Source: a virus (taxonomy: Duplodnaviria; Heunggongvirae; Uroviricota; Caudoviricetes). From it: a stretch of 32,383 bases of DNA. Under the pieces are notes generated by a model. That model was given only the letters and a program-made list of their open reading frames with translations. It did no database searches and had not been told where the DNA came from. A program made the translations under genes and the position numbers. Positions 12,781 through 26,258 of this stretch are shown here, piece by piece (within the stretch, counting starts at the first letter, position 1; each line of letters opens with the position of its first letter). Where the stretch lies: IMG/VR virus record IMGVR_UViG_2861069343_000002, positions 1-32,383 of that record; one strand, 5' to 3'.

Positions 12781-14739
12781 TTACGCCGTACATTTCACCA
12801 GACCGCGGTGATCAACTGGCGCGACACCGGCGTCAATACGCACTTTCGTTGTCACGCCATCCACACTGAAGCCCTCCATCTGATCAATATATGGCGTATC
12901 CACACCGTTGAGATAAGCCACTTCAATCGTATCGGAGCCTTTTGACGCAGCCAGGTAGAAGGTGGTCTGGCTGTTATCATCAAGACGAGGCTCTGCAATA
13001 ACGGTCGCAAAATCTTTCACCGGGTTAATAATACCGGCGTTAATGTCAGCCCCCTTGACACTTGAGGAGCGAATGACCTGGTTAGCAACAGACTCCATCG
13101 CCGTCGGTACCAGTACGAACGCAGGACGAATATTCAGATGACGCTCCCCCTCTTTCTGAACGCGCATCAACTGGCGGGCTTTATCCAGCGATGCCACGTC
13201 CATTGCAGCGCTCTCCAGTACGTTTGCATGTTTCGCTTTATCGAACAGACTTACATTATCTGTGGAGATTTTCGGGTTAGACGTCAGAATGGCATAAACC
13301 AGATCGGCAATAGTGGATTTCGCCGCACGGCCCAGTTTCATCGGGACATCGGTCAGCATATTCAGATCATCATTGATAATGGCCTGACGGGTGATACTGA
13401 ACAGCTCGCCATAGGTCGCCAGTGCAATAGTGGCCTGTTTATCTCCGGTGGTGACGTATTTATATTCCGCCCCTTCACGCACCTGACGCAGAGCACTGAA
13501 GCCCCCCATACCCACACGATGGGCAATTTTAAAATCAGACAACTGACCTTTCCGCGTCCACTGTTCATAGGTTTCAGGGGCATCTTCCCAGCCCTGCAGA
13601 ATGGCTTTGTTCGCAACATCCAGCAGAATATTACCGAAGTCAGACGTACTGTGTGTGAACGCCGCACCGACCATCTGCATCGGGTTATAACCGGAAACCC
13701 CAATACCCCGTTCAGTCAGTGACATACGGGCATATTCACGCAGGGTCATCCCGTTGTAGACATTATCACGTTCGGTTTTTTCAAATCCGGCACGCGCCAT
13801 CAGCGCCTGGCGAATCCCGTCCCCCACAAAATTACCGTTACCGGCATAAATATGAGCCGGGGTATTTTTATTGGATGGCGTGGACTCGCGCCCCATCTCG
13901 TTCAACAGCTTTTCACGGGCCTGCTCCAGCGAACATTCAGGATCGGCAAGACACTGAGCCTGCAGCGTCTGATAACGCCCGCCAAACATGGCAAACAGAT
14001 CATTAATACCGTTTACACGCGCTTTTTGCTCTGCCAGTACCTGTGCACGGATGCTGTTTTCATCCACCACGGGTGCTGCTGCCTGCACTGGCGTCCGGGA
14101 GGCTTCAGATTCATTATCCTGTACGCGTGGAGCACTGTTGCGTGGCGGAGTAATCATGTTTCGAATGGATTCCGGCATCTTTTTAAATTCCTCTGTACGT
14201 TTTGACTGAATACATGCCATTGCCTTAACGGCTGGCGTTACCTGATCAGCAAATCCATGTGCCAGACATTCGGCACCGGACATCCAGGTCTCATCCGCCA
14301 GCATGGCAGCAATTTCATCGGTGGTTTTCCCGGTTTTCTGTGCATAAGCGGGTAACAGAACCGCCTCAACTTTATCGAGCAGGTCGGCATAGGTGCGCAT
14401 GTCCTCCGCATCACCGCCCGTAAAGCCAAATGGTTTATGAATCATCATGAAGGTGTTTTCCGGCATAATGACCGGGTTTCCCACCATCGCAATGACCGAC
14501 GCCATTGACGCCGCCACACCGTCGACATAAACGGTAATGGACGCACCATGTGTTTTCAGCGCATTAAAAATGGCGATGCCTTCAAAGACATCGCCACCCG
14601 GTGAATTAATATGGAGATTAATGTGGGTGATATCGCCCAGTGCATTCAGATCACTGATAAACTGCTTCGCTGTAACACCCCAGAAACCAATCTCGTCATA
14701 AATATAAATATCCGCGTCACTCTGGTGACCAGCCTGCAT
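12781..14739 (-). CDS. Prohead protease (ClpP/S49-like) fused to HK97-fold major capsid protein
   Basis: N-terminal DADIYIYDEIGFWGV...INSPGGDVFEG...ASMASVIA serine protease motifs, long C-terminal capsid-like region; first ATG after portal stop chosen (14739); longest ORF extends to 15000. Confidence 0.75.
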   Translation of the reverse strand: MQAGHQSDADIYIYDEIGFWGVTAKQFISDLNALGDITHINLHINSPGGDVFEGIAIFNALKTHGASITVYVDGVAASMASVIAMVGNPVIMPENTFMMIHKPFGFTGGDAEDMRTYADLLDKVEAVLLPAYAQKTGKTTDEIAAMLADETWMSGAECLAHGFADQVTPAVKAMACIQSKRTEEFKKMPESIRNMITPPRNSAPRVQDNESEASRTPVQAAAPVVDENSIRAQVLAEQKARVNGINDLFAMFGGRYQTLQAQCLADPECSLEQAREKLLNEMGRESTPSNKNTPAHIYAGNGNFVGDGIRQALMARAGFEKTERDNVYNGMTLREYARMSLTERGIGVSGYNPMQMVGAAFTHSTSDFGNILLDVANKAILQGWEDAPETYEQWTRKGQLSDFKIAHRVGMGGFSALRQVREGAEYKYVTTGDKQATIALATYGELFSITRQAIINDDLNMLTDVPMKLGRAAKSTIADLVYAILTSNPKISTDNVSLFDKAKHANVLESAAMDVASLDKARQLMRVQKEGERHLNIRPAFVLVPTAMESVANQVIRSSSVKGADINAGIINPVKDFATVIAEPRLDDNSQTTFYLAASKGSDTIEVAYLNGVDTPYIDQMEGFSVDGVTTKVRIDAGVAPVDHRGLVKCTA

Positions 14740-19875: not shown

Positions 19876-20565
19876 ATGAGTCTAATTGATTTACGAGATG
19901 AATATGAAGAAAGAGCAAGAGACATTATGGAACTGCTTTCTCTTGCATCATCTATAGAGATTCATACTCAGCAGTTAGATCCGCAAGCGCATCAAGATGA
20001 AATAGAATCTAATATCCTAAGGGTAAATATTTTAAAATCATCCGTTCATATGATGCTATATAATCAAGTTGAAAATACTGCCAGAGGTTGCATCGAGTCA
20101 ATTTATGATCATTTACAAGATAATGAGGTGAATTACGCATCACTCAGGGAGAAGCTTCAAGTAAATATATTACATAGAATTGTTTCAGATAATGAAACAG
20201 GGCAATCCCTTTATAAAAAGATAGGCACTGACATTTCCAAAAGAATAATTTCAGCCTCATTGAATATTCGTAAAGAATTCAATGGTAATGTTTGCAAGCC
20301 TGTATTACACAAAATAACGCAGGCTTACGGAATAACTATCGCAAACTCACCTGAATGTAGAAATGGTATTGACTTAGACTTGCTTAAGGATATCAGAAAC
20401 GAACTCGCGCATGGAAGTACTAGCTTCTCTAAAAAGGGGCAAATTGACCCCTTAGAAGAAGTTAAGTCTAGAGCAGAGAGAGTTGATCTATATCTTCGTT
20501 TATTAATAAACTCAACTGAAGATTATATTATCTCTAACGGATATTTATCCCCTCAACATGCCTAA
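19876..20565 (+). CDS. HEPN-domain protein (Rx4H motif), putative RNase effector coupled to the DUF262 gene
   Basis: 229 aa; RNELAH matches HEPN R-x4-6-H; starts 2 nt after the DUF262 stop with SD AGGGA; 3' end overlaps convergent MTase gene by 32 nt. Confidence 0.65.
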   Translation: MSLIDLRDEYEERARDIMELLSLASSIEIHTQQLDPQAHQDEIESNILRVNILKSSVHMMLYNQVENTARGCIESIYDHLQDNEVNYASLREKLQVNILHRIVSDNETGQSLYKKIGTDISKRIISASLNIRKEFNGNVCKPVLHKITQAYGITIANSPECRNGIDLDLLKDIRNELAHGSTSFSKKGQIDPLEEVKSRAERVDLYLRLLINSTEDYIISNGYLSPQHA

Positions 20566-21574
20566 CAAACGTTCTCCCTATTACTTGGCCAATTATAGGG
20601 GGAACAGCATTACCAATCATCGTTCCTAACTTTTGGAATGAAAAAGGCGTATTTTTTCCAATAAATTTATAATCCATAGGAAAAGATTGTAAAATAGCAG
20701 CTTCACGCAAAGTTATTGCTCTATTTTGCTCAGGATGTCCGAATCGCCCATTACCATATCCATAACATTGGGTAGTTATTGTAGGACTAGTATCGTCCCA
20801 AACCATCCGTCCATAAACACTTTTATAGGTAGCACCTGAATGCTTTTTATGGCAATCCGCTCTAATTTCTTCAGGCCAATCATCCCACGTACCACCTGGT
20901 AAAGAGTGCAAGATTCGTTTAAGGTTAATATCCCTTAATTTAGGCGAACGATGCAATGGATCACTTTCGAGTTTCTCCCCTGCACCTATTTTTGGCAACT
21001 GACCAATAGCATCCTTTACTGTAACTTTACGGCTTACTTTTTTTTGATCAAGGCTGATTGGCCCCAATATGGACCCAATTAGAATTAATCTACGTCTATT
21101 TTGAGGCAAGCCATACTCGGAACATTTTACAACGTCGTACCACAGATGATACCCAAGAGTCTTTAATACACTAACAAACTCTTCAAAAACCTTATGATTT
21201 CTAAGTTGAGGAACATTTTCCATAGTCACAAGCTCTGGCATGACATCACTTACAATCCTCTGAAACTCAGATAAAAGACGCCACTTTGTATCATCTTTTC
21301 TGCTATTTGGATTACGATACTTGGAAAACGGTTGGCAAGGGGCACAGCCTGCAAGTAATCTAATATTTCCTTCCTTGAACATAGCAGACACATCGCTGGA
21401 TTGCAGTTCAGTAACTGACTGGTTAATGAACTTCGTTAAGGGATTATTGCTCTCAATAGCGAAACGGCAGGACTCATCAATATCAATGCCATGAGAAACT
21501 TCAATCCCGGCTTTTTTTAGCCCAAAAGTTAAGCCCCCTGCGCCACAAAAAATGTCTACTGCTTGAATGTTCAC
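20534..21574 (-). CDS. DNA cytosine-5 methyltransferase (Dcm-like), first gene of the late operon
   Basis: Motif I DIFCGAGG, motif IV GCAPCQPFS (catalytic PC), motif VI ENV, motif VIII QNRRR, motif X GNAV; GTG start at 21574 with SD GGAGAA. Confidence 0.85.
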   Translation of the reverse strand: MNIQAVDIFCGAGGLTFGLKKAGIEVSHGIDIDESCRFAIESNNPLTKFINQSVTELQSSDVSAMFKEGNIRLLAGCAPCQPFSKYRNPNSRKDDTKWRLLSEFQRIVSDVMPELVTMENVPQLRNHKVFEEFVSVLKTLGYHLWYDVVKCSEYGLPQNRRRLILIGSILGPISLDQKKVSRKVTVKDAIGQLPKIGAGEKLESDPLHRSPKLRDINLKRILHSLPGGTWDDWPEEIRADCHKKHSGATYKSVYGRMVWDDTSPTITTQCYGYGNGRFGHPEQNRAITLREAAILQSFPMDYKFIGKNTPFSFQKLGTMIGNAVPPIIGQVIGRTFVRHVEGINIR

Positions 21575-21653: not shown

Positions 21654-22007
21654 TCATTGTATTAAATAAAAAAATGACAAGCATCCATCAATAAACCCCA
21701 TAGCTGTTTGCATATCTTTTCGAACTGTTCCGTCTGAACATTTCCGCTTCTTTGCAATTGTACGGAGCGAAATGCCAACAACAAAGTGAGCAATTATCAG
21801 CTCATACTCTGCCGGCTTGTATTTACGCAACCTAGCGACACAACCGTCTATTATGATGCCCTCATCATCATCGCACTGAATCCGGGACTTTCTGCCATGA
21901 GGTAAAAGCCGCTTGAAGCCAGCAGCTACCGGTTGCCAGTCCACACCACTGTTTTCTGCAGCAGCCCATGCCCCCCAGCGGTCCAAAACTTCATACATAT
22001 CACGCAT
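21654..22007 (-). CDS. Late gene antiterminator Q-family protein (Phage_antitermQ-like)
   Basis: LDRWGAWAA...W...AAGFKRL...SRIQCDDDEGIIIDGCVARL pattern matches small phage Q proteins as recalled; position before late operon; ATG 22007 with SD GGAGAAAG. Confidence 0.65.
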   Translation of the reverse strand: MRDMYEVLDRWGAWAAAENSGVDWQPVAAGFKRLLPHGRKSRIQCDDDEGIIIDGCVARLRKYKPAEYELIIAHFVVGISLRTIAKKRKCSDGTVRKDMQTAMGFIDGCLSFFYLIQ

Positions 22008-22024
22008 CAACTTTCTCCACAAAA

Positions 22025-23020
22025 TCAGGCCAGCACGCCAATTGCCAGCGCACGATCGATAAAACGAAATATCAGCTCCAGCTGGGAGCCATACATCTCT
22101 TCAAATGCCACGGTATCTGCATGCAGCTCGTCGTGATGCTTTCTGCACAAAGGCAACACAAAGAGGTCATGCGCTTTTGTACCCATTCCACCCTGACCGT
22201 GACCTATCAGGTGGTGGGGATCATCAGCAGGCTTTCCACAACATGCACACGGCTGTGTCTTAACCCAGCGCGTGTACTTTTCATTAACCCAGCGGCGACG
22301 TTTTGGGCGTAACATAAAAGACTCCGGCGACTCCGGATCCACTTTCAGCGCCAGCACCTTTTTCGCCTTATCCTGGATGATGCTGGTAGCAGGAACCGAA
22401 GGCACAAGGTCACTTTCCCGGGTGACAGACGGCACAACAGGCTTCGGTAATCTCAGTGCCTTACGGGCTGCACTTTCCGGTAAGGCATCCGCCAGGTCAT
22501 TACGAATCAGCCACCAGCACAGTTCCGGCATTGTCACAACGTGACTGTCATCAAAACCGAGATCCCGACGCACAACAGACAACACCCAGCGGGCACAGTT
22601 ATCCGTTGCCATTGATTCCAGCCGTTCCGTGAACTGATCACGCAGCTGGTTATCGCAGTGCCAGCACAGACGGATTGCACCCGGAGCGTGTCGCATTGTG
22701 GTCATGTTCTCGCTGTGCCAGTCGGAATGAGGCCACTGGCAGCCTTTTTCACGAAGTAACCAGCTTTCAAGACATTCCACGCCACCAGCACGACGGATCA
22801 CTGCCTCATTGCGGAACACGGCCCAAACGGCAGGATCATCCGCCAGCGGTTGTGACGCCGCGGGAACGGCACCACTGGCGAAAGATGAATAATGCTCCGG
22901 CTCAGGCTCCAGCAGGACACGCCCCTGCATAAACAGGGGCATCAGCTCTGAACCGGGCCTGAACAATACGATCCCCATACGCGGGGCAATTTCAGGGGTC
23001 AGTAGTGCTCTCACGGTCAC
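22025..23020 (-). CDS. DUF968 protein (YdfU-like) with C-terminal HNH-like zinc motif
   Basis: C-terminus QPCACCGKPADDPHHLIGHGQGGMGTKAHDLFVLPLCRKHHDELH; GTG start at 23020 (alternative ATG 22978). Confidence 0.65.
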   Translation of the reverse strand: MTVRALLTPEIAPRMGIVLFRPGSELMPLFMQGRVLLEPEPEHYSSFASGAVPAASQPLADDPAVWAVFRNEAVIRRAGGVECLESWLLREKGCQWPHSDWHSENMTTMRHAPGAIRLCWHCDNQLRDQFTERLESMATDNCARWVLSVVRRDLGFDDSHVVTMPELCWWLIRNDLADALPESAARKALRLPKPVVPSVTRESDLVPSVPATSIIQDKAKKVLALKVDPESPESFMLRPKRRRWVNEKYTRWVKTQPCACCGKPADDPHHLIGHGQGGMGTKAHDLFVLPLCRKHHDELHADTVAFEEMYGSQLELIFRFIDRALAIGVLA

Positions 23021-23021
23021 C

Positions 23022-23369
23022 TCAATGAACGGTATCGAGCAGCTTTAACAGCTCAGGGACCAGTTTTTCCGCCTGGCGAGTCAGGCACAAAATCACCCGG
23101 GAATCGTTAGTGCCGACATAGAAATTGCGCACAGGTCTGGTTTCACGAACTGGTTGTGGTTCCGGCTCCTGCGCTCTCTCAGTCAGGCGCGGGAAATGTC
23201 TGCGTGTATCCCCTTCACAACGGTGAGCCACACGCCCACTCTGACGTAACTTGCTTGCTGACTGCAGAACGCGCTGCCGTGAGTAACCTGCAAAAGCATC
23301 CGCAATGTCTCCGGAAGTACAGCCCGGATGGGCTTCAATGAATTTCTGAACTTCATTCAAAAGACTCAT
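23022..23369 (-). CDS. Hypothetical prophage protein
   Basis: 115 aa from ATG 23369 (SD GGGGGTGA); position between replication gene and DUF968. Confidence 0.4.
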   Translation of the reverse strand: MSLLNEVQKFIEAHPGCTSGDIADAFAGYSRQRVLQSASKLRQSGRVAHRCEGDTRRHFPRLTERAQEPEPQPVRETRPVRNFYVGTNDSRVILCLTRQAEKLVPELLKLLDTVH

Positions 23370-23371
23370 GC

Positions 23372-24313
23372 TCACCCCCTGAATCCTGCCGGGATCTGGC
23401 TGTAGTCCACGCTGTCGTAACTGGATTTGAAATACGGGTCTTCGCGTTTTTCTGTGTATGTGCTGATGGACGGCGATAAGCGCAGGGAAAGCTCATCCCA
23501 TTTTTCCCGCAGCTTCGACGGGCTGAGCACGTTACGGCACCAGAACGGATCGCGGCTGACGCGGCTGTACATCTCGCAGATTTGTTTGTGAGTACGACCA
23601 TCCTGCACACACATCAGGCGAATTTCGTTTGCCCAGGCTGTCCAGTTCGGTTCTTTGGGACGAACCACCTCGCCGTCACATTCGGCGGCCTGCTCGTACA
23701 GGGCAATGATTTTTTTCCAGAGCCACTGTGCGCAGGTCAAATCATCCTGCGTTCCCCACTGGCGCTTTTTAGGGCTGAATACAACCGCATCAGGATGGCG
23801 AGTTAAAAAATCCTGTTCAGCCGTCTGCGTGTCCGGTTGCGAAGCGTCCGGACGAGAAGGTTTTTTATCTGACGGATCATGTTTTGATTTTACTGACGGA
23901 TCCCCGCCAGATTCTGACGGGTGAAAACCCGCTTTTTTGCCAGATTTCGACGCATCAAATTTTGACGTGTCAGATTTTGATGCGTCAGATTTTGACGGGT
24001 CAGAATCTGACAGTTGAGAAAATGCCGCTGCCTGAAGCTTCGCAACGTTAAGCTGATAAACATTCGACGCATTGCGGTTACCCTGGCGACGCGCCTTACG
24101 CGTTAACCAGCCTTCTGCTTCCAGCCGTGCGATAGCCGTTCTGACGGTACTCATCCCCGCGCCAATCTGACGGGCAATAGTTTCAATTGATGGCCAGCAC
24201 ACACCTTCGTCATTACTGAAATCAGCCAGGCGGGCCATAATTGCCACGCTGGATAATTTCATGCCTGACGCAGCGCAACCATCCCATACATAGCCGGTTA
24301 ATTTAGTGCTCAT
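23372..24313 (-). CDS. Replication initiator (lambda O-like function) with winged-helix N-terminus and iterons inside the coding sequence
   Basis: N-terminal HTH/winged helix (SIETIARQIGAGMSTVRTAIARLEAEGWL); central SKSDASKSDTSKFDASKSG repeats encoded by tandem approximately 15-bp DNA repeats; SD AGAGGT before ATG 24313. Confidence 0.6.
   Translation of the reverse strand: MSTKLTGYVWDGCAASGMKLSSVAIMARLADFSNDEGVCWPSIETIARQIGAGMSTVRTAIARLEAEGWLTRKARRQGNRNASNVYQLNVAKLQAAAFSQLSDSDPSKSDASKSDTSKFDASKSGKKAGFHPSESGGDPSVKSKHDPSDKKPSRPDASQPDTQTAEQDFLTRHPDAVVFSPKKRQWGTQDDLTCAQWLWKKIIALYEQAAECDGEVVRPKEPNWTAWANEIRLMCVQDGRTHKQICEMYSRVSRDPFWCRNVLSPSKLREKWDELSLRLSPSISTYTEKREDPYFKSSYDSVDYSQIPAGFRG
23890..24013. 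repeat. Iteron array (putative phage replication origin) inside the initiator gene
   Basis: Tandem approximately 15-bp units (CAGATTTCGACGCAT, CAAATTTTGACGTGT, CAGATTTTGATGCGT, CAGATTTTGACGGGT, CAGAATCTGACAG) plus upstream CAGATTCTGACGGGT. Confidence 0.55.
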
Positions 24314-24661
24314 GACCGACCTCTATTTCCCTGAATTTACGACGAAACTGTTCGAGCGGGCTGAAGCACTCATGCTCATAGCCTTCACGGAGGTAGATAA
24401 CCCGTTGTGTTTCCGGCTCCCAACGAATGACTCTGACGGGCACTCCGTAGTGATCTTTGAACCAGCGGTTAACTTGTCGCAAAGGACTGTCTCCTTCTGC
24501 CGGTTGAAATCCCCCACAGCCCACTCAGCAAAGCTGTGGGTTACAATTTCCCTGTCACCTGGTACATTTACTGCATAGCAATACTCCACCTTCGCTTTTC
24601 CACCCGGTACAGGAAGCGCAATCAGTTGCGAGCGACGGTAGTGTGTTGTTAAACTGTTCAT
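24303..24661 (-). pseudogene. Small early gene split between two overlapping frames at a G5 tract (frameshift mutation or programmed frameshift)
   Basis: ORF 24661..~24500 (N-terminal part, ATGA-coupled to CII-like gene) and ORF 24524..24303 (C-terminal part, overlaps initiator start) overlap at GTGGGGGAT (plus-strand C5 at 24511..24515); one extra G would fuse them into a ~126 aa ORF. Confidence 0.3.
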
Positions 24662-25215
24662 GCGTTAGTTTCTCCACAACCAGAAGCAATCGACGCCACG
24701 ACGCCCGGAGCTGCACACTCGCGGGCGTCATTACTTTCTGAAACGCAAAAAATTTTGTAGACAAGTGCTGCATGCTCCTGCAGCTTCGAAATTGAGAGGT
24801 ACAGCTCGTCGTTAATTGCTGTCTTCTCATGCGGTTCCACTACACCGTCTTCGATTGCCGAACGAATCTGTTTTGAATAACTGCCGATCTGTTCAATGAC
24901 TTCCAGTAAACGCTGGTTAATATCGGCATTGTCCACATCCTCGACGTCAGGAAGAGACACAAAGACGCCATTTGCAGACTGCGCCACAGCGTCGGCAATG
25001 AAGTGAGTGCCACCAGCACGTTGTAAAATCATTGCCCATCCCAGCGGGAAAATCTGATCGCCATCGGCACGAAGGCGGTTAAATAATGCGTTCTCTGTTA
25101 CATCCAGCCACTCAGCAGCTTCAGCGTAACCCCCCGGCAACGCCGCGATAGTTTTTCTGACAGCTTTCACGTACCACTCAGGCTGTTTTTCCACTTTCCA
25201 GTGATGATTACCCAC
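24658..25215 (-). CDS. CII-like early regulatory protein (phage 186 CII-like), hypothetical
   Basis: 185 aa, GTG start with strong SD AGGAGGT; immediately downstream of cro-like gene; loose resemblance to 186-type CII. Confidence 0.4.
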
Positions 25216-25468
25216 GGCTTACCTCCTGTTCCTGTGGTTTAAACCCATTCTGGTTTTGGCTAGATTGAAAACGTGCCGGATAAAGAATCTGCATTTCGCT
25301 GATTTCACCCTTAAAAAAATTGGCCAGACGTTCTGCAAGATCGATAGATGGAATTTGTTCCAGTCTTTCAATACGACTCAGCGTCGCTGGATTGACCTGA
25401 ACGCCAGCAGCAACATGCTGCAAAGTAAATCCGTGCGCCTTACGCACATTCCGTAATGGTGATTGCAT
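25208..25468 (-). CDS. Cro-like HTH (XRE family) regulator
   Basis: 86 aa; HTH GFTLQHVAAGVQVNPATLSRIE; divergent from CI across operator region; SD GGAGG before ATG 25468. Confidence 0.7.
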   Translation of the reverse strand: MQSPLRNVRKAHGFTLQHVAAGVQVNPATLSRIERLEQIPSIDLAERLANFFKGEISEMQILYPARFQSSQNQNGFKPQEQEVSRG

Positions 25469-25565: not shown

Positions 25566-26258
25566 ATGAACATAGGAAACCGAGTCAGACAACTTCGCCA
25601 GGCGAAGAACATGAAAATCGCCGATCTCGCTGAAGCAATAGGAGTGGATGCGGCGAATATCTCACGCCTGGAAACAGGTAAGCAGAAACAATTCACTGAA
25701 CAAGCCCTGAGTAATATTGCCAGGAGCTTAGGTGTTGATATTGCTGATCTCTTTACCTCAGACGTCAAAAGTAATACTGTATGTAAAAACAGTATTAGTG
25801 AGGATGTTGCGCAGGTGAAGGATGTATTCCGTATTGAAATGCTGGATGTCAGTGCCAGTGCGGGAAATGGCCTTATCCAGGGCGGTGATGTCATTGATGT
25901 GATTCATGCCATTGAATACAGAACTGATAATGCTGTATCGATGTTTGGCGGACGGCCAGCCAATCACATTAAAGTTATCAACGTTCGTGGGGACAGTATG
26001 TGTCCAACCATTGAGCCAGGAGATCTCATCTTCGTTGATGTCAGTATCAATCAGTTTGATGGAGATGGTATCTATGTATTTGGTTTTGATGATAAAATTT
26101 ATGTCAAACGACTGCAAATGATACCTGACAAACTACTGGTGATTTCTGATAACCAGATTTACCGTGAATGGGGAATTACCAGCGAAAATGAACACCGGTT
26201 TATGGTCTTTGGAAAGGTCTTAATCAGCCAGTCACAAACCCTTAAGCGACACAATTAA
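25566..26258 (+). CDS. CI-like repressor (N-terminal HTH plus C-terminal S24 LexA-like peptidase domain)
   Basis: HTH IADLAEAIGVDAANISRLETGK; C-terminal GDSMCPTI (Ser nucleophile) and VKRL (Lys); 230 aa. Confidence 0.85.
   Translation: MNIGNRVRQLRQAKNMKIADLAEAIGVDAANISRLETGKQKQFTEQALSNIARSLGVDIADLFTSDVKSNTVCKNSISEDVAQVKDVFRIEMLDVSASAGNGLIQGGDVIDVIHAIEYRTDNAVSMFGGRPANHIKVINVRGDSMCPTIEPGDLIFVDVSINQFDGDGIYVFGFDDKIYVKRLQMIPDKLLVISDNQIYREWGITSENEHRFMVFGKVLISQSQTLKRHN

Follow-up and report, generated by a model that had tools for sequence, protein, structure and literature searches.

The 32,383-nt caudoviral sequence IMGVR_UViG_2861069343_000002 (hereafter referred to as the window) carries, in the middle of its replication initiator gene, an array of tandem 15-bp repeats. 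The question raised by this locus is whether the array marks the origin from which the phage replicates, as ori-lambda does within gene O of phage lambda, or whether it serves the transcript or the encoded protein. An earlier note on this DNA had proposed that it marks the origin, and the position of the array, its conservation at the DNA level, its linkage to the N-terminal domain of the initiator and its AT-rich flank all support that proposal. On this comparative evidence, all of it computational, the segment spanning approximately 23860-24019 is very probably a phage replication origin, located lambda-style within the initiator gene where the linker is encoded. Judged from the sequence, it is of the ori-lambda type in layout and presumed mechanism, yet the initiator has a PF13730 N-domain and no loader partner, and so lacks two of the features that define the lambda O/P pair.

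The repeats lie in the linker of a replication initiator

The gene that contains the array is a minus-strand open reading frame (ORF) of 313 codons, at 23372-24313. The encoded protein matches PHROG 391 ('replication initiation O-like') over residues 1-313, with an E-value of 2e-134, and the Pfam domain HTH_36 (PF13730) at residues 23-70, with 42.9 bits against a cutoff of 25. Its C-terminal domain (residues ∼160-313, positions 23372-23836) is homologous to those of lambda O and phi80 gp15: BLASTP returns lambda O with an E-value of 5e-26 over residues 70-277, the best part being residues 185-277, and phi80 gp15 with an E-value of 4e-25. In lambda O, this is the domain that binds P. The reading of the ORF as a replication initiator is therefore well supported, and homology ties the protein firmly to replication. 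In relatives, the protein is variously annotated as 'primosomal protein', 'replication protein O' or 'HTH domain protein', and it is 98.8% identical to gp41 of phage SfIV.

An AlphaFold2 (AF2) model, built with 56 homologues, shows a winged-helix domain at residues 1-100 and a helical C-domain at residues 162-280, the latter with a predicted local distance difference test score (pLDDT) of 83-94. The linker between these, residues 103-161, has a pLDDT below 50 and is predicted to be disordered. The winged-helix DNA-binding domain, encoded on the minus strand at 24014-24313, is the presumed reader of the repeats, which directly follow it. The repeats have the same relative position in the gene as the annotated iterons of lambda, phi80 and P22.

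The array consists of near-palindromic units

Tandem Repeats Finder identified an array of period 15 at 23941-24004, with 4.3 copies, a score of 86 and the consensus CAGATTTTGACGCGT; it is the top-scoring tandem repeat of the whole window. Five contiguous 15-bp iterons can be delineated at 23938-24012, starting on the plus strand at 23938, 23953, 23968, 23983 and 23998, with 13-bp cores at 23939-23951, 23954-23966, 23969-23981, 23984-23996 and 23999-24011. A sixth iteron, reading GTCAGAATCTGGC on the sense strand, is detached from the array by 33 bp and found at 23905-23919. The array corresponds to codons 101-136, and encodes the peptide SDSDP-SKSDA-SKSDT-SKFDA-SKSGK. Repeat searching and translation of the ORF thus bear out the earlier description of tandem units of about 15 bp in the middle of the initiator ORF encoding a pentapeptide repeat. 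The count of five to six tandem units holds for five, the sixth being the separate copy at 23905. Similarly, the bounds given before, 23890-24013, do contain the array, but the conserved element extends a further ∼30 bp to the left, to ∼23860, taking in an AT-rich stretch and two GATC sites.

A search of the 32 kb for CGTCAGATTTTGACG, allowing up to three mismatches, returned 11 matches, 9 of which (at six sites, some matched on both strands) lie inside 23905-24012. In dinucleotide-preserving shuffles the mean was 0.97 matches and the maximum 3, and none of 100 shuffles reached 11; the matches found in the window outside the array are at chance level. A promoter and terminator scan gave nothing above chance within the array.

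On the sense strand, the core of the unit reads GTCA(A/G)A-A-TCTGAC (also written GTCARAWTCTGAC), a 13-bp near-palindrome in which two 6-bp arms flank a single central base, followed by two variable bases. This near-palindromic nature of each unit had escaped the earlier note. In the array, the first unit (GTCAGATTCTGAC) is perfectly palindromic, and the detached unit, GTCAGAATCTGGC, is one base away from being so. For comparison, I used homologues with the same N-domain from four phages and 80 genomic loci, spanning ∼30 enterobacterial genera. A position matrix derived from 381 units of 78 distinct homologues reads C[G/A]TCA[A/G]AATCTGAC[G], with near-invariant positions at T3, C4, A5, A7, T9, C10, T11 and G12.

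The detached unit is almost unchanged across five phages and the 78 genomic homologues. Divergent branches of the family keep the motif CCAGAATCTGG, with units at 33-bp spacing; as far as sequence can tell, the type of unit that is multiplied in these branches is that of the detached iteron of the window. Homologues have between 0 and 8 copies in the array, most often 5, and near-identical Escherichia coli alleles of 303, 318 and 323 amino acids differ by whole 15-bp units, in frame.

Synonymous sites of the linker are frozen

The codons used within the repeat differ strongly from those used in the rest of the same genes. The first serine is encoded by TCA in 149 of 153 cases, against 17.5% elsewhere, and the second by TCT in 133 of 153, against 9.5%, while the lysine codon is AAA in all 119 cases (63% elsewhere). 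More generally, at conserved residues the fraction taken by the major codon is 0.52 in codons 1-97 (72 columns), and rises to 0.91 in codons 99-151 (31 columns). A Mann-Whitney test on the 78 distinct homologues gives a p-value of 2e-13 for this contrast, which overstates independence since the homologues share ancestry; unlike the p-value, the codon contrast within each gene is unaffected by this kinship.

Synonymous codons are therefore frozen in codons 99-151 and scrambled in the N-domain, demonstrating that selection acts on the DNA. The constrained zone, at 23861-24019, is taken as the likely extent of the origin. It includes the array, the detached unit and a further ∼45 bp reading GGGGATCCGTCAGTAAAATCAAAACATGATCCGTCAGATAAAAAACC, and overlaps most of the predicted disordered linker. 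Such codon freezing in a disordered stretch rules out a purely protein-level repeat. Lambda O could not serve as a control for this analysis, as all 80 loci found in viral contigs are 99-100% identical to lambda, leaving no divergence to analyse. For a lambda-type origin, it has been reported that synonymous changes in the iterons abolish the replication of a plasmid (PMC7466680).

The array is flanked by the least stable DNA of the gene

An adjacent AT-rich region was to be expected of an origin, and one is present. By nearest-neighbour free energy (dG), the 40-mer of lowest stability in the gene is at 23855-23894 (dG -47.0, z 3.0, 65-70% AT), beginning 11 nt downstream of the last unit. The AT-rich, least stable segment as a whole, at 23855-23904, is a candidate unwinding element; it contains two GATCCGTCAG boxes, with GATC at 23875 and 23899. 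In the positive controls, the least stable 40-mer begins within a few nucleotides of the last annotated iteron for lambda and phi80, and falls inside the annotated origin for P22, with z values of 2.7-3.0. Among homologues, the stability minimum lies 5-43 nt past the last unit in 64 of 77, and at least two GATC sites are present in the flanking segment in 67 of 77.

The gene that follows the initiator in relatives very often encodes a DNA adenine methyltransferase, either Dam-type, MT-A70-type or fused to a C5 methylase or a 3'-phosphoadenosine-5'-phosphosulfate (PAPS) reductase. The window's own methylase, at 20534-21574, is of the cytosine type only. The GATC pair, considered along with these adenine methyltransferase neighbours, hints that firing of the origin may be controlled by methylation.

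To the right of the AT-rich block, lambda and phi80 read TCGTCAGAGAATTCTGGCGAATCCTCTGAC, which resembles the detached unit and first GATCC box of the window, CCGTCAGAATCTGGCGGGGATCCGTCAG. In relatives with a lambda-O-like C-domain, their own origin is likewise followed by a lambda-like TCGTC.C.GAATTCTGACGAATC. The likeness between TCGTCAGAGAATTCTGGCGAATCCTCTGAC and CCGTCAGAATCTGGCGGGGATCCGTCAG may be the remnant of a shared origin or linker.

The array is inherited together with the N-domain

Phages of Klebsiella, Escherichia and Yersinia carry the same array behind this N-domain, as do the 80 genomic loci. This unit of N-domain and array is joined to at least four unrelated kinds of C-domain, namely a lambda-O-like domain (15 loci), Phg_2220_C (PF09524; 57 loci), a phiP27-type domain (2 loci) and an L075-type domain (3 loci). 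These types were assigned against reference sequences, single-linkage clustering having merged all C-domains. The converse exchange is seen in phage mEp460_4F5, where the C-terminal 160 amino acids are ∼98% identical to those of the window, but the N-domain is different, and so are the repeats (periods 23 and 12). There, the recombination joint falls at residue ∼152, which is the downstream edge of the constrained zone. Other HTH_36 initiators bear arrays of their own at the same place, with a period of 21-24 in SfV orf39 and of 24 in the Min27 'O' protein. These patterns suggest that the N-domain and the origin behave as one exchangeable specificity module, with the C-domain as a second swappable module.

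The e14 element has lost the array, and its N-domain is reduced to the first 79 residues, which are joined to a terminase-like sequence. Matches in the plasmid collection, examined for signs of autonomous replication, were limited to the excised e14 circle and a prophage fragment; PLSDB entry OR902851.1, a 15.2-kb circular 'plasmid', is the excised e14.

Alternative explanations for the conserved array

Part of the evidence presented above would also be expected if the repeats were a low-complexity linker, (SKSDx)n, generated by slippage, with the similarity between units reflecting recent duplication only. The linker is indeed predicted disordered, and near-identical genes differ by whole units in frame (the 303-, 318- and 323-residue alleles). 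Nevertheless, I consider this explanation very improbable: the codons are frozen over ∼30 genera while the synonymous sites of the adjacent N-domain are scrambled, the two serine positions are fixed on different codons (TCA and TCT), the constraint extends over 50 bp of non-repeated sequence including the two GATC sites, and there is no explanation at the protein level for the dyad symmetry. Synonymous constraint could alternatively come from an overlapping reading frame. Two such ORFs exist, one on the plus strand (23884-24051, 55 amino acids) and one on the minus strand (23890-24072, 60 amino acids), and no stop codon interrupts the antisense frame within the array in 73 of 78 homologues, or the +1 sense frame in 67 of 78. 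However, the frames are open merely because the conserved unit itself lacks stop codons in them; stop-to-stop distances span 54-192 and 46-126 codons, with no conserved gene boundary, and the products would be QILT or TRQNL repeats, which I linked to no family. As the palindromes, the AT-rich flank and the linkage to the N-domain would all be left unexplained, an overlapping gene is scarcely credible.

A more serious contender is a cis-acting element other than an origin, either a structure in the early-right transcript controlling translation or stability of the initiator or of downstream genes, or operator sites that serve the initiator for autoregulation only, or that are bound by another protein. 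Plasmid iterons are known to double as control sites, and the sense RNA of 23855-24025 has a predicted folding energy of -53.2 kcal/mol, where shuffles give -32.2 (z -5.8). Yet such a fold is the automatic outcome of tandem palindromes, and a copy number varying from 0 to 8 would break any fixed long-range pairing. In 64% of units, an A at position 5 faces a conserved C, producing a mismatch in the hairpin, while the unpaired centre is conserved as well as the arms. As for operators, no extra copies of CGTCAGATTTTGACG are found near the operon promoter. The conserved flank of low stability matches that of known origins, and the element co-varies with the DNA-binding domain, not with the transcript context. 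A cis element of this sort is therefore unlikely to account for the array, although it is less so than the two preceding explanations.

Several observations weigh against an origin, besides the RNA fold and the kinship of the homologues already mentioned. Near-identical E. coli genes of 287, 282 and 274 amino acids have lost the array partly or wholly with the ORF intact; these arose by deletion between repeats, and are presumably origin-dead relics. The exact sequence of the window is found as a decayed prophage at tRNA-Thr beside proA in E. coli AR437; its structural genes are truncated, and it has a portal gene, fragments of the tail fibre and a protease that is also truncated. Individual copies of the gene can thus be dead relics, and the copy in the window, sitting in a defective prophage, may never fire. 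The AT content of the flank, 65-70%, is like that of phi80 (68%) and weaker than that of lambda and P22 (78-80%). No consensus DnaA box is present near the element, the single TTWTNCACA match in the window being at 14339, far from the gene. No loader is encoded, which leaves the helicase-loading step unexplained, and no experimental report of binding, unwinding or autonomous replication for this initiator family was found in the searchable literature.

Distribution and prophage state

SfIV and SfII, which are functional Shigella serotype-converting phages, possess the same gene and array with 98-99% identity, so that the repeat is not confined to defective elements. SfIV is an isolated, plaque-forming phage (PMC3851460). 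The initiator gene is present at 80% of its length or more in 1575 of 5426 complete E. coli genomes. SfV and several 'Eru' types of Shiga toxin (Stx) phages also possess related HTH_36 initiators (PMC8951638).

The prophage also carries a DUF262 and HEPN-nuclease pair adjoining the cytosine methyltransferase. Close to the tail end, it encodes an AAA ATPase accompanied by a small partner protein. This cargo is likely to serve in defence.

The operon encodes no recognizable helicase loader

The neighbouring genes are those of a lambdoid early-right operon. A cI-type S24 repressor is encoded on the plus strand at 25566-26258, and is followed on the minus strand by a cro-like gene (25208-25468), a YmfL/CII-like gene (24658-25215) and a small DUF4222 ORF of 73 amino acids (24303-24524; PF13973, E-value 3e-19), which overlaps the start of the initiator. 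Downstream of the initiator, also on the minus strand, lie a truncated YfdN/PerC-like ORF (23022-23375), which overlaps the initiator stop codon and occupies the slot of lambda P, then a DUF968/HNH gene (22025-23020) and the antiterminator Q (21654-22022). The YfdN/PerC-like ORF matches PHROG 1324 ('transcriptional activator', E-value 1.5e-39) and is called a pseudogene by the Prokaryotic Genome Annotation Pipeline (PGAP); its full-length counterpart, SfIV gp42, bears a PerC domain.

No match to a loader or helicase family was obtained for these three downstream ORFs, which agrees with the earlier statement that no P- or DnaC-like gene follows the initiator. To see how general this is, ∼2.3 kb downstream of the initiator were surveyed in 79 related loci. 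A lambda P homologue (PF06992, E-value 1e-53) is present in 2 of these, and a DnaC/IstB-like gene in 8, of which 5 also have a DnaB-type helicase, while the remaining 69 have neither P nor a DnaC/DnaB-type gene in the surveyed segment. Even among the 15 loci with a lambda-O-like C-domain, P is present in only one. In SfIV, neither the annotation nor Pfam scans of the unassigned early genes revealed a helicase, primase or loader.

A DUF4222 homologue is found at the same position, upstream of the initiator, in 64 of the 79 loci. It is missing from all 8 loci with a DnaC-like gene after the initiator, a pattern that is confounded by lineage. The DUF4222 protein could be a replication accessory. 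In this region two minus-strand ORFs overlap in different frames, 24323-24661 (112 amino acids) and 24303-24524 (the 73-residue DUF4222 ORF), both with family support. The former matches PHROG 1170 (E-value 3e-70) and is annotated as SfIV gp40, whereas the latter is the only one of the pair called by PGAP; at least one annotation tradition is probably wrong here.

A possible route to initiation

For the proposed origin, a pathway modelled on lambda can be outlined. The initiator would be expressed on induction from the early-right operon, where its gene is seen to follow cro and the CII/YmfL-like gene. Dimers of its N-terminal winged-helix domain would then bind the six 13-bp near-palindromes, forming a complex analogous to the lambda O-some; I infer such binding from the dyad symmetry of the units and the co-inheritance of the array with the N-domain. 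This complex would destabilize the AT-rich segment at 23855-23904, whose position and low stability are as described above. Finally, the lambda-O-like C-domain would recruit the host helicase, which is the weakest step of the scheme. As no P, DnaC or DnaB gene is present, DnaB would presumably be loaded with host DnaC, or via an unrecognized phage adaptor. By analogy with iteron plasmids, the route through host DnaC would be the default.

A more specific, and rather doubtful, proposal is that this is a self-sufficient, loader-less lambdoid replicon with one modular initiator whose linker holds the origin. In this replicon host DnaB/DnaC would be contacted directly by the swappable C-domain, which is lambda-O-like in the window and Phg_2220_C in most relatives, or else the DUF4222 protein (60-70 amino acids) would be a new helicase-recruiting adaptor that replaces P. 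Methylation of the GATC sites could gate firing in such a replicon.

Implications

That an initiator gene of this kind should contain its origin is what a specialist would expect. Less expected are the clean module structure, a lambda-O-type C-domain apparently working without P, and the conserved GATC pair. The origins of these HTH_36 initiators and their route to the host helicase are not described in the searchable literature, nor was a description found there of what appears to be a loader-less HTH_36 variant of origin. Its definition provides a precise target for blocking replication, for new compatible vectors, and for understanding how a lambda-O-type C-domain works without P. It also offers a general signature for origins hidden in coding sequence, namely a jump in synonymous conservation in a disordered linker, adjoining the gene's least stable DNA. 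For lambda, phi80 and P22, the stability part of this signature led back to the annotated origins; the synonymous-site part was applied to the present family.

Comparison with known systems

The closest parallel in layout is ori-lambda, with its O-P pair. In lambda as in the window, dyad-symmetric iterons with an A-tract centre lie within the initiator gene, after the N-terminal DNA-binding domain, with an AT-rich segment downstream, in an early-right operon and after cro and cII, and the C-domains are homologous (E-value 5e-26). The lambda iterons (TCCCTC-AAAAC-GAGGGA) and the phi80 sites (TTCCCG-AAAAC-GG...) share with the window units a design of two arms around an A-tract centre. In contrast, the initiators of lambda, phi80 and P22 match the Phage_rep_O (PF04492) N-domain, while that of the window is HTH_36; the lambda iterons are 18-19-bp TCCCTCAAAACGAGGGA units at 20-24 bp spacing, while the 15-bp units of the window are contiguous; and lambda has a P gene, which the window lacks. 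Lambda O is a dimer in solution, and lambda-type iterons have been described in detail, including those of the Stx phages 933W and P27 (PMC7466680). The Stx 'P27' studied by Kozlowska et al., with lambda-type iterons, is distinct from the phiP27 gene related to the initiator of the window.

In phi80 (gene 15/14), the C-domain is likewise homologous (E-value 4e-25), four annotated gp15 sites are found in the same part of the gene, and the AT-rich flank is very similar (68% AT and dG -46.4, compared with 70% and -47.0 in the window). It differs by its TTCCCGAAAACGG-type sites, and by the P-like gene 14 directly downstream. In P22 (gene 18/12), the annotated rep_origin also falls within the initiator gene and has an AT-rich block after its repeats, but this phage has its own DnaB-type helicase, gp12, and its initiator shows no detectable similarity to the protein of the window (E-value 0.52).

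Within the same N-domain family, at ∼39-43% identity, are the initiators of the Eru modules of non-lambdoid Stx phages, SfV orf39 and Min27 'O'. The Eru HTH_36 proteins are listed as putative replication proteins, and the passages searched in this literature make no mention of iterons or of a replication origin (PMC8951638). Similarly, the SfIV paper names a 'replication module' and mentions no origin (PMC3851460). SfV orf39 and Min27 'O' have tandem arrays right after the N-domain, but of other sequence and period (21-24 bp).

A further parallel is provided by iteron plasmids. In the well-known plasmids, the iterons are found outside the rep gene, together with DnaA boxes, whereas those of the window lie within the gene, with no consensus DnaA box, and no sequence relationship was found between the window initiator and plasmid Rep proteins. 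The organization is nonetheless alike, as pSC101, R6K, P1 and RK2 likewise use one winged-helix initiator and direct repeats beside an AT-rich region (reviewed in PMC4980987). These plasmids encode no loader of their own and rely on host DnaB and DnaC, and they are the closest working analogy for the loader-less state of this probable phage origin.

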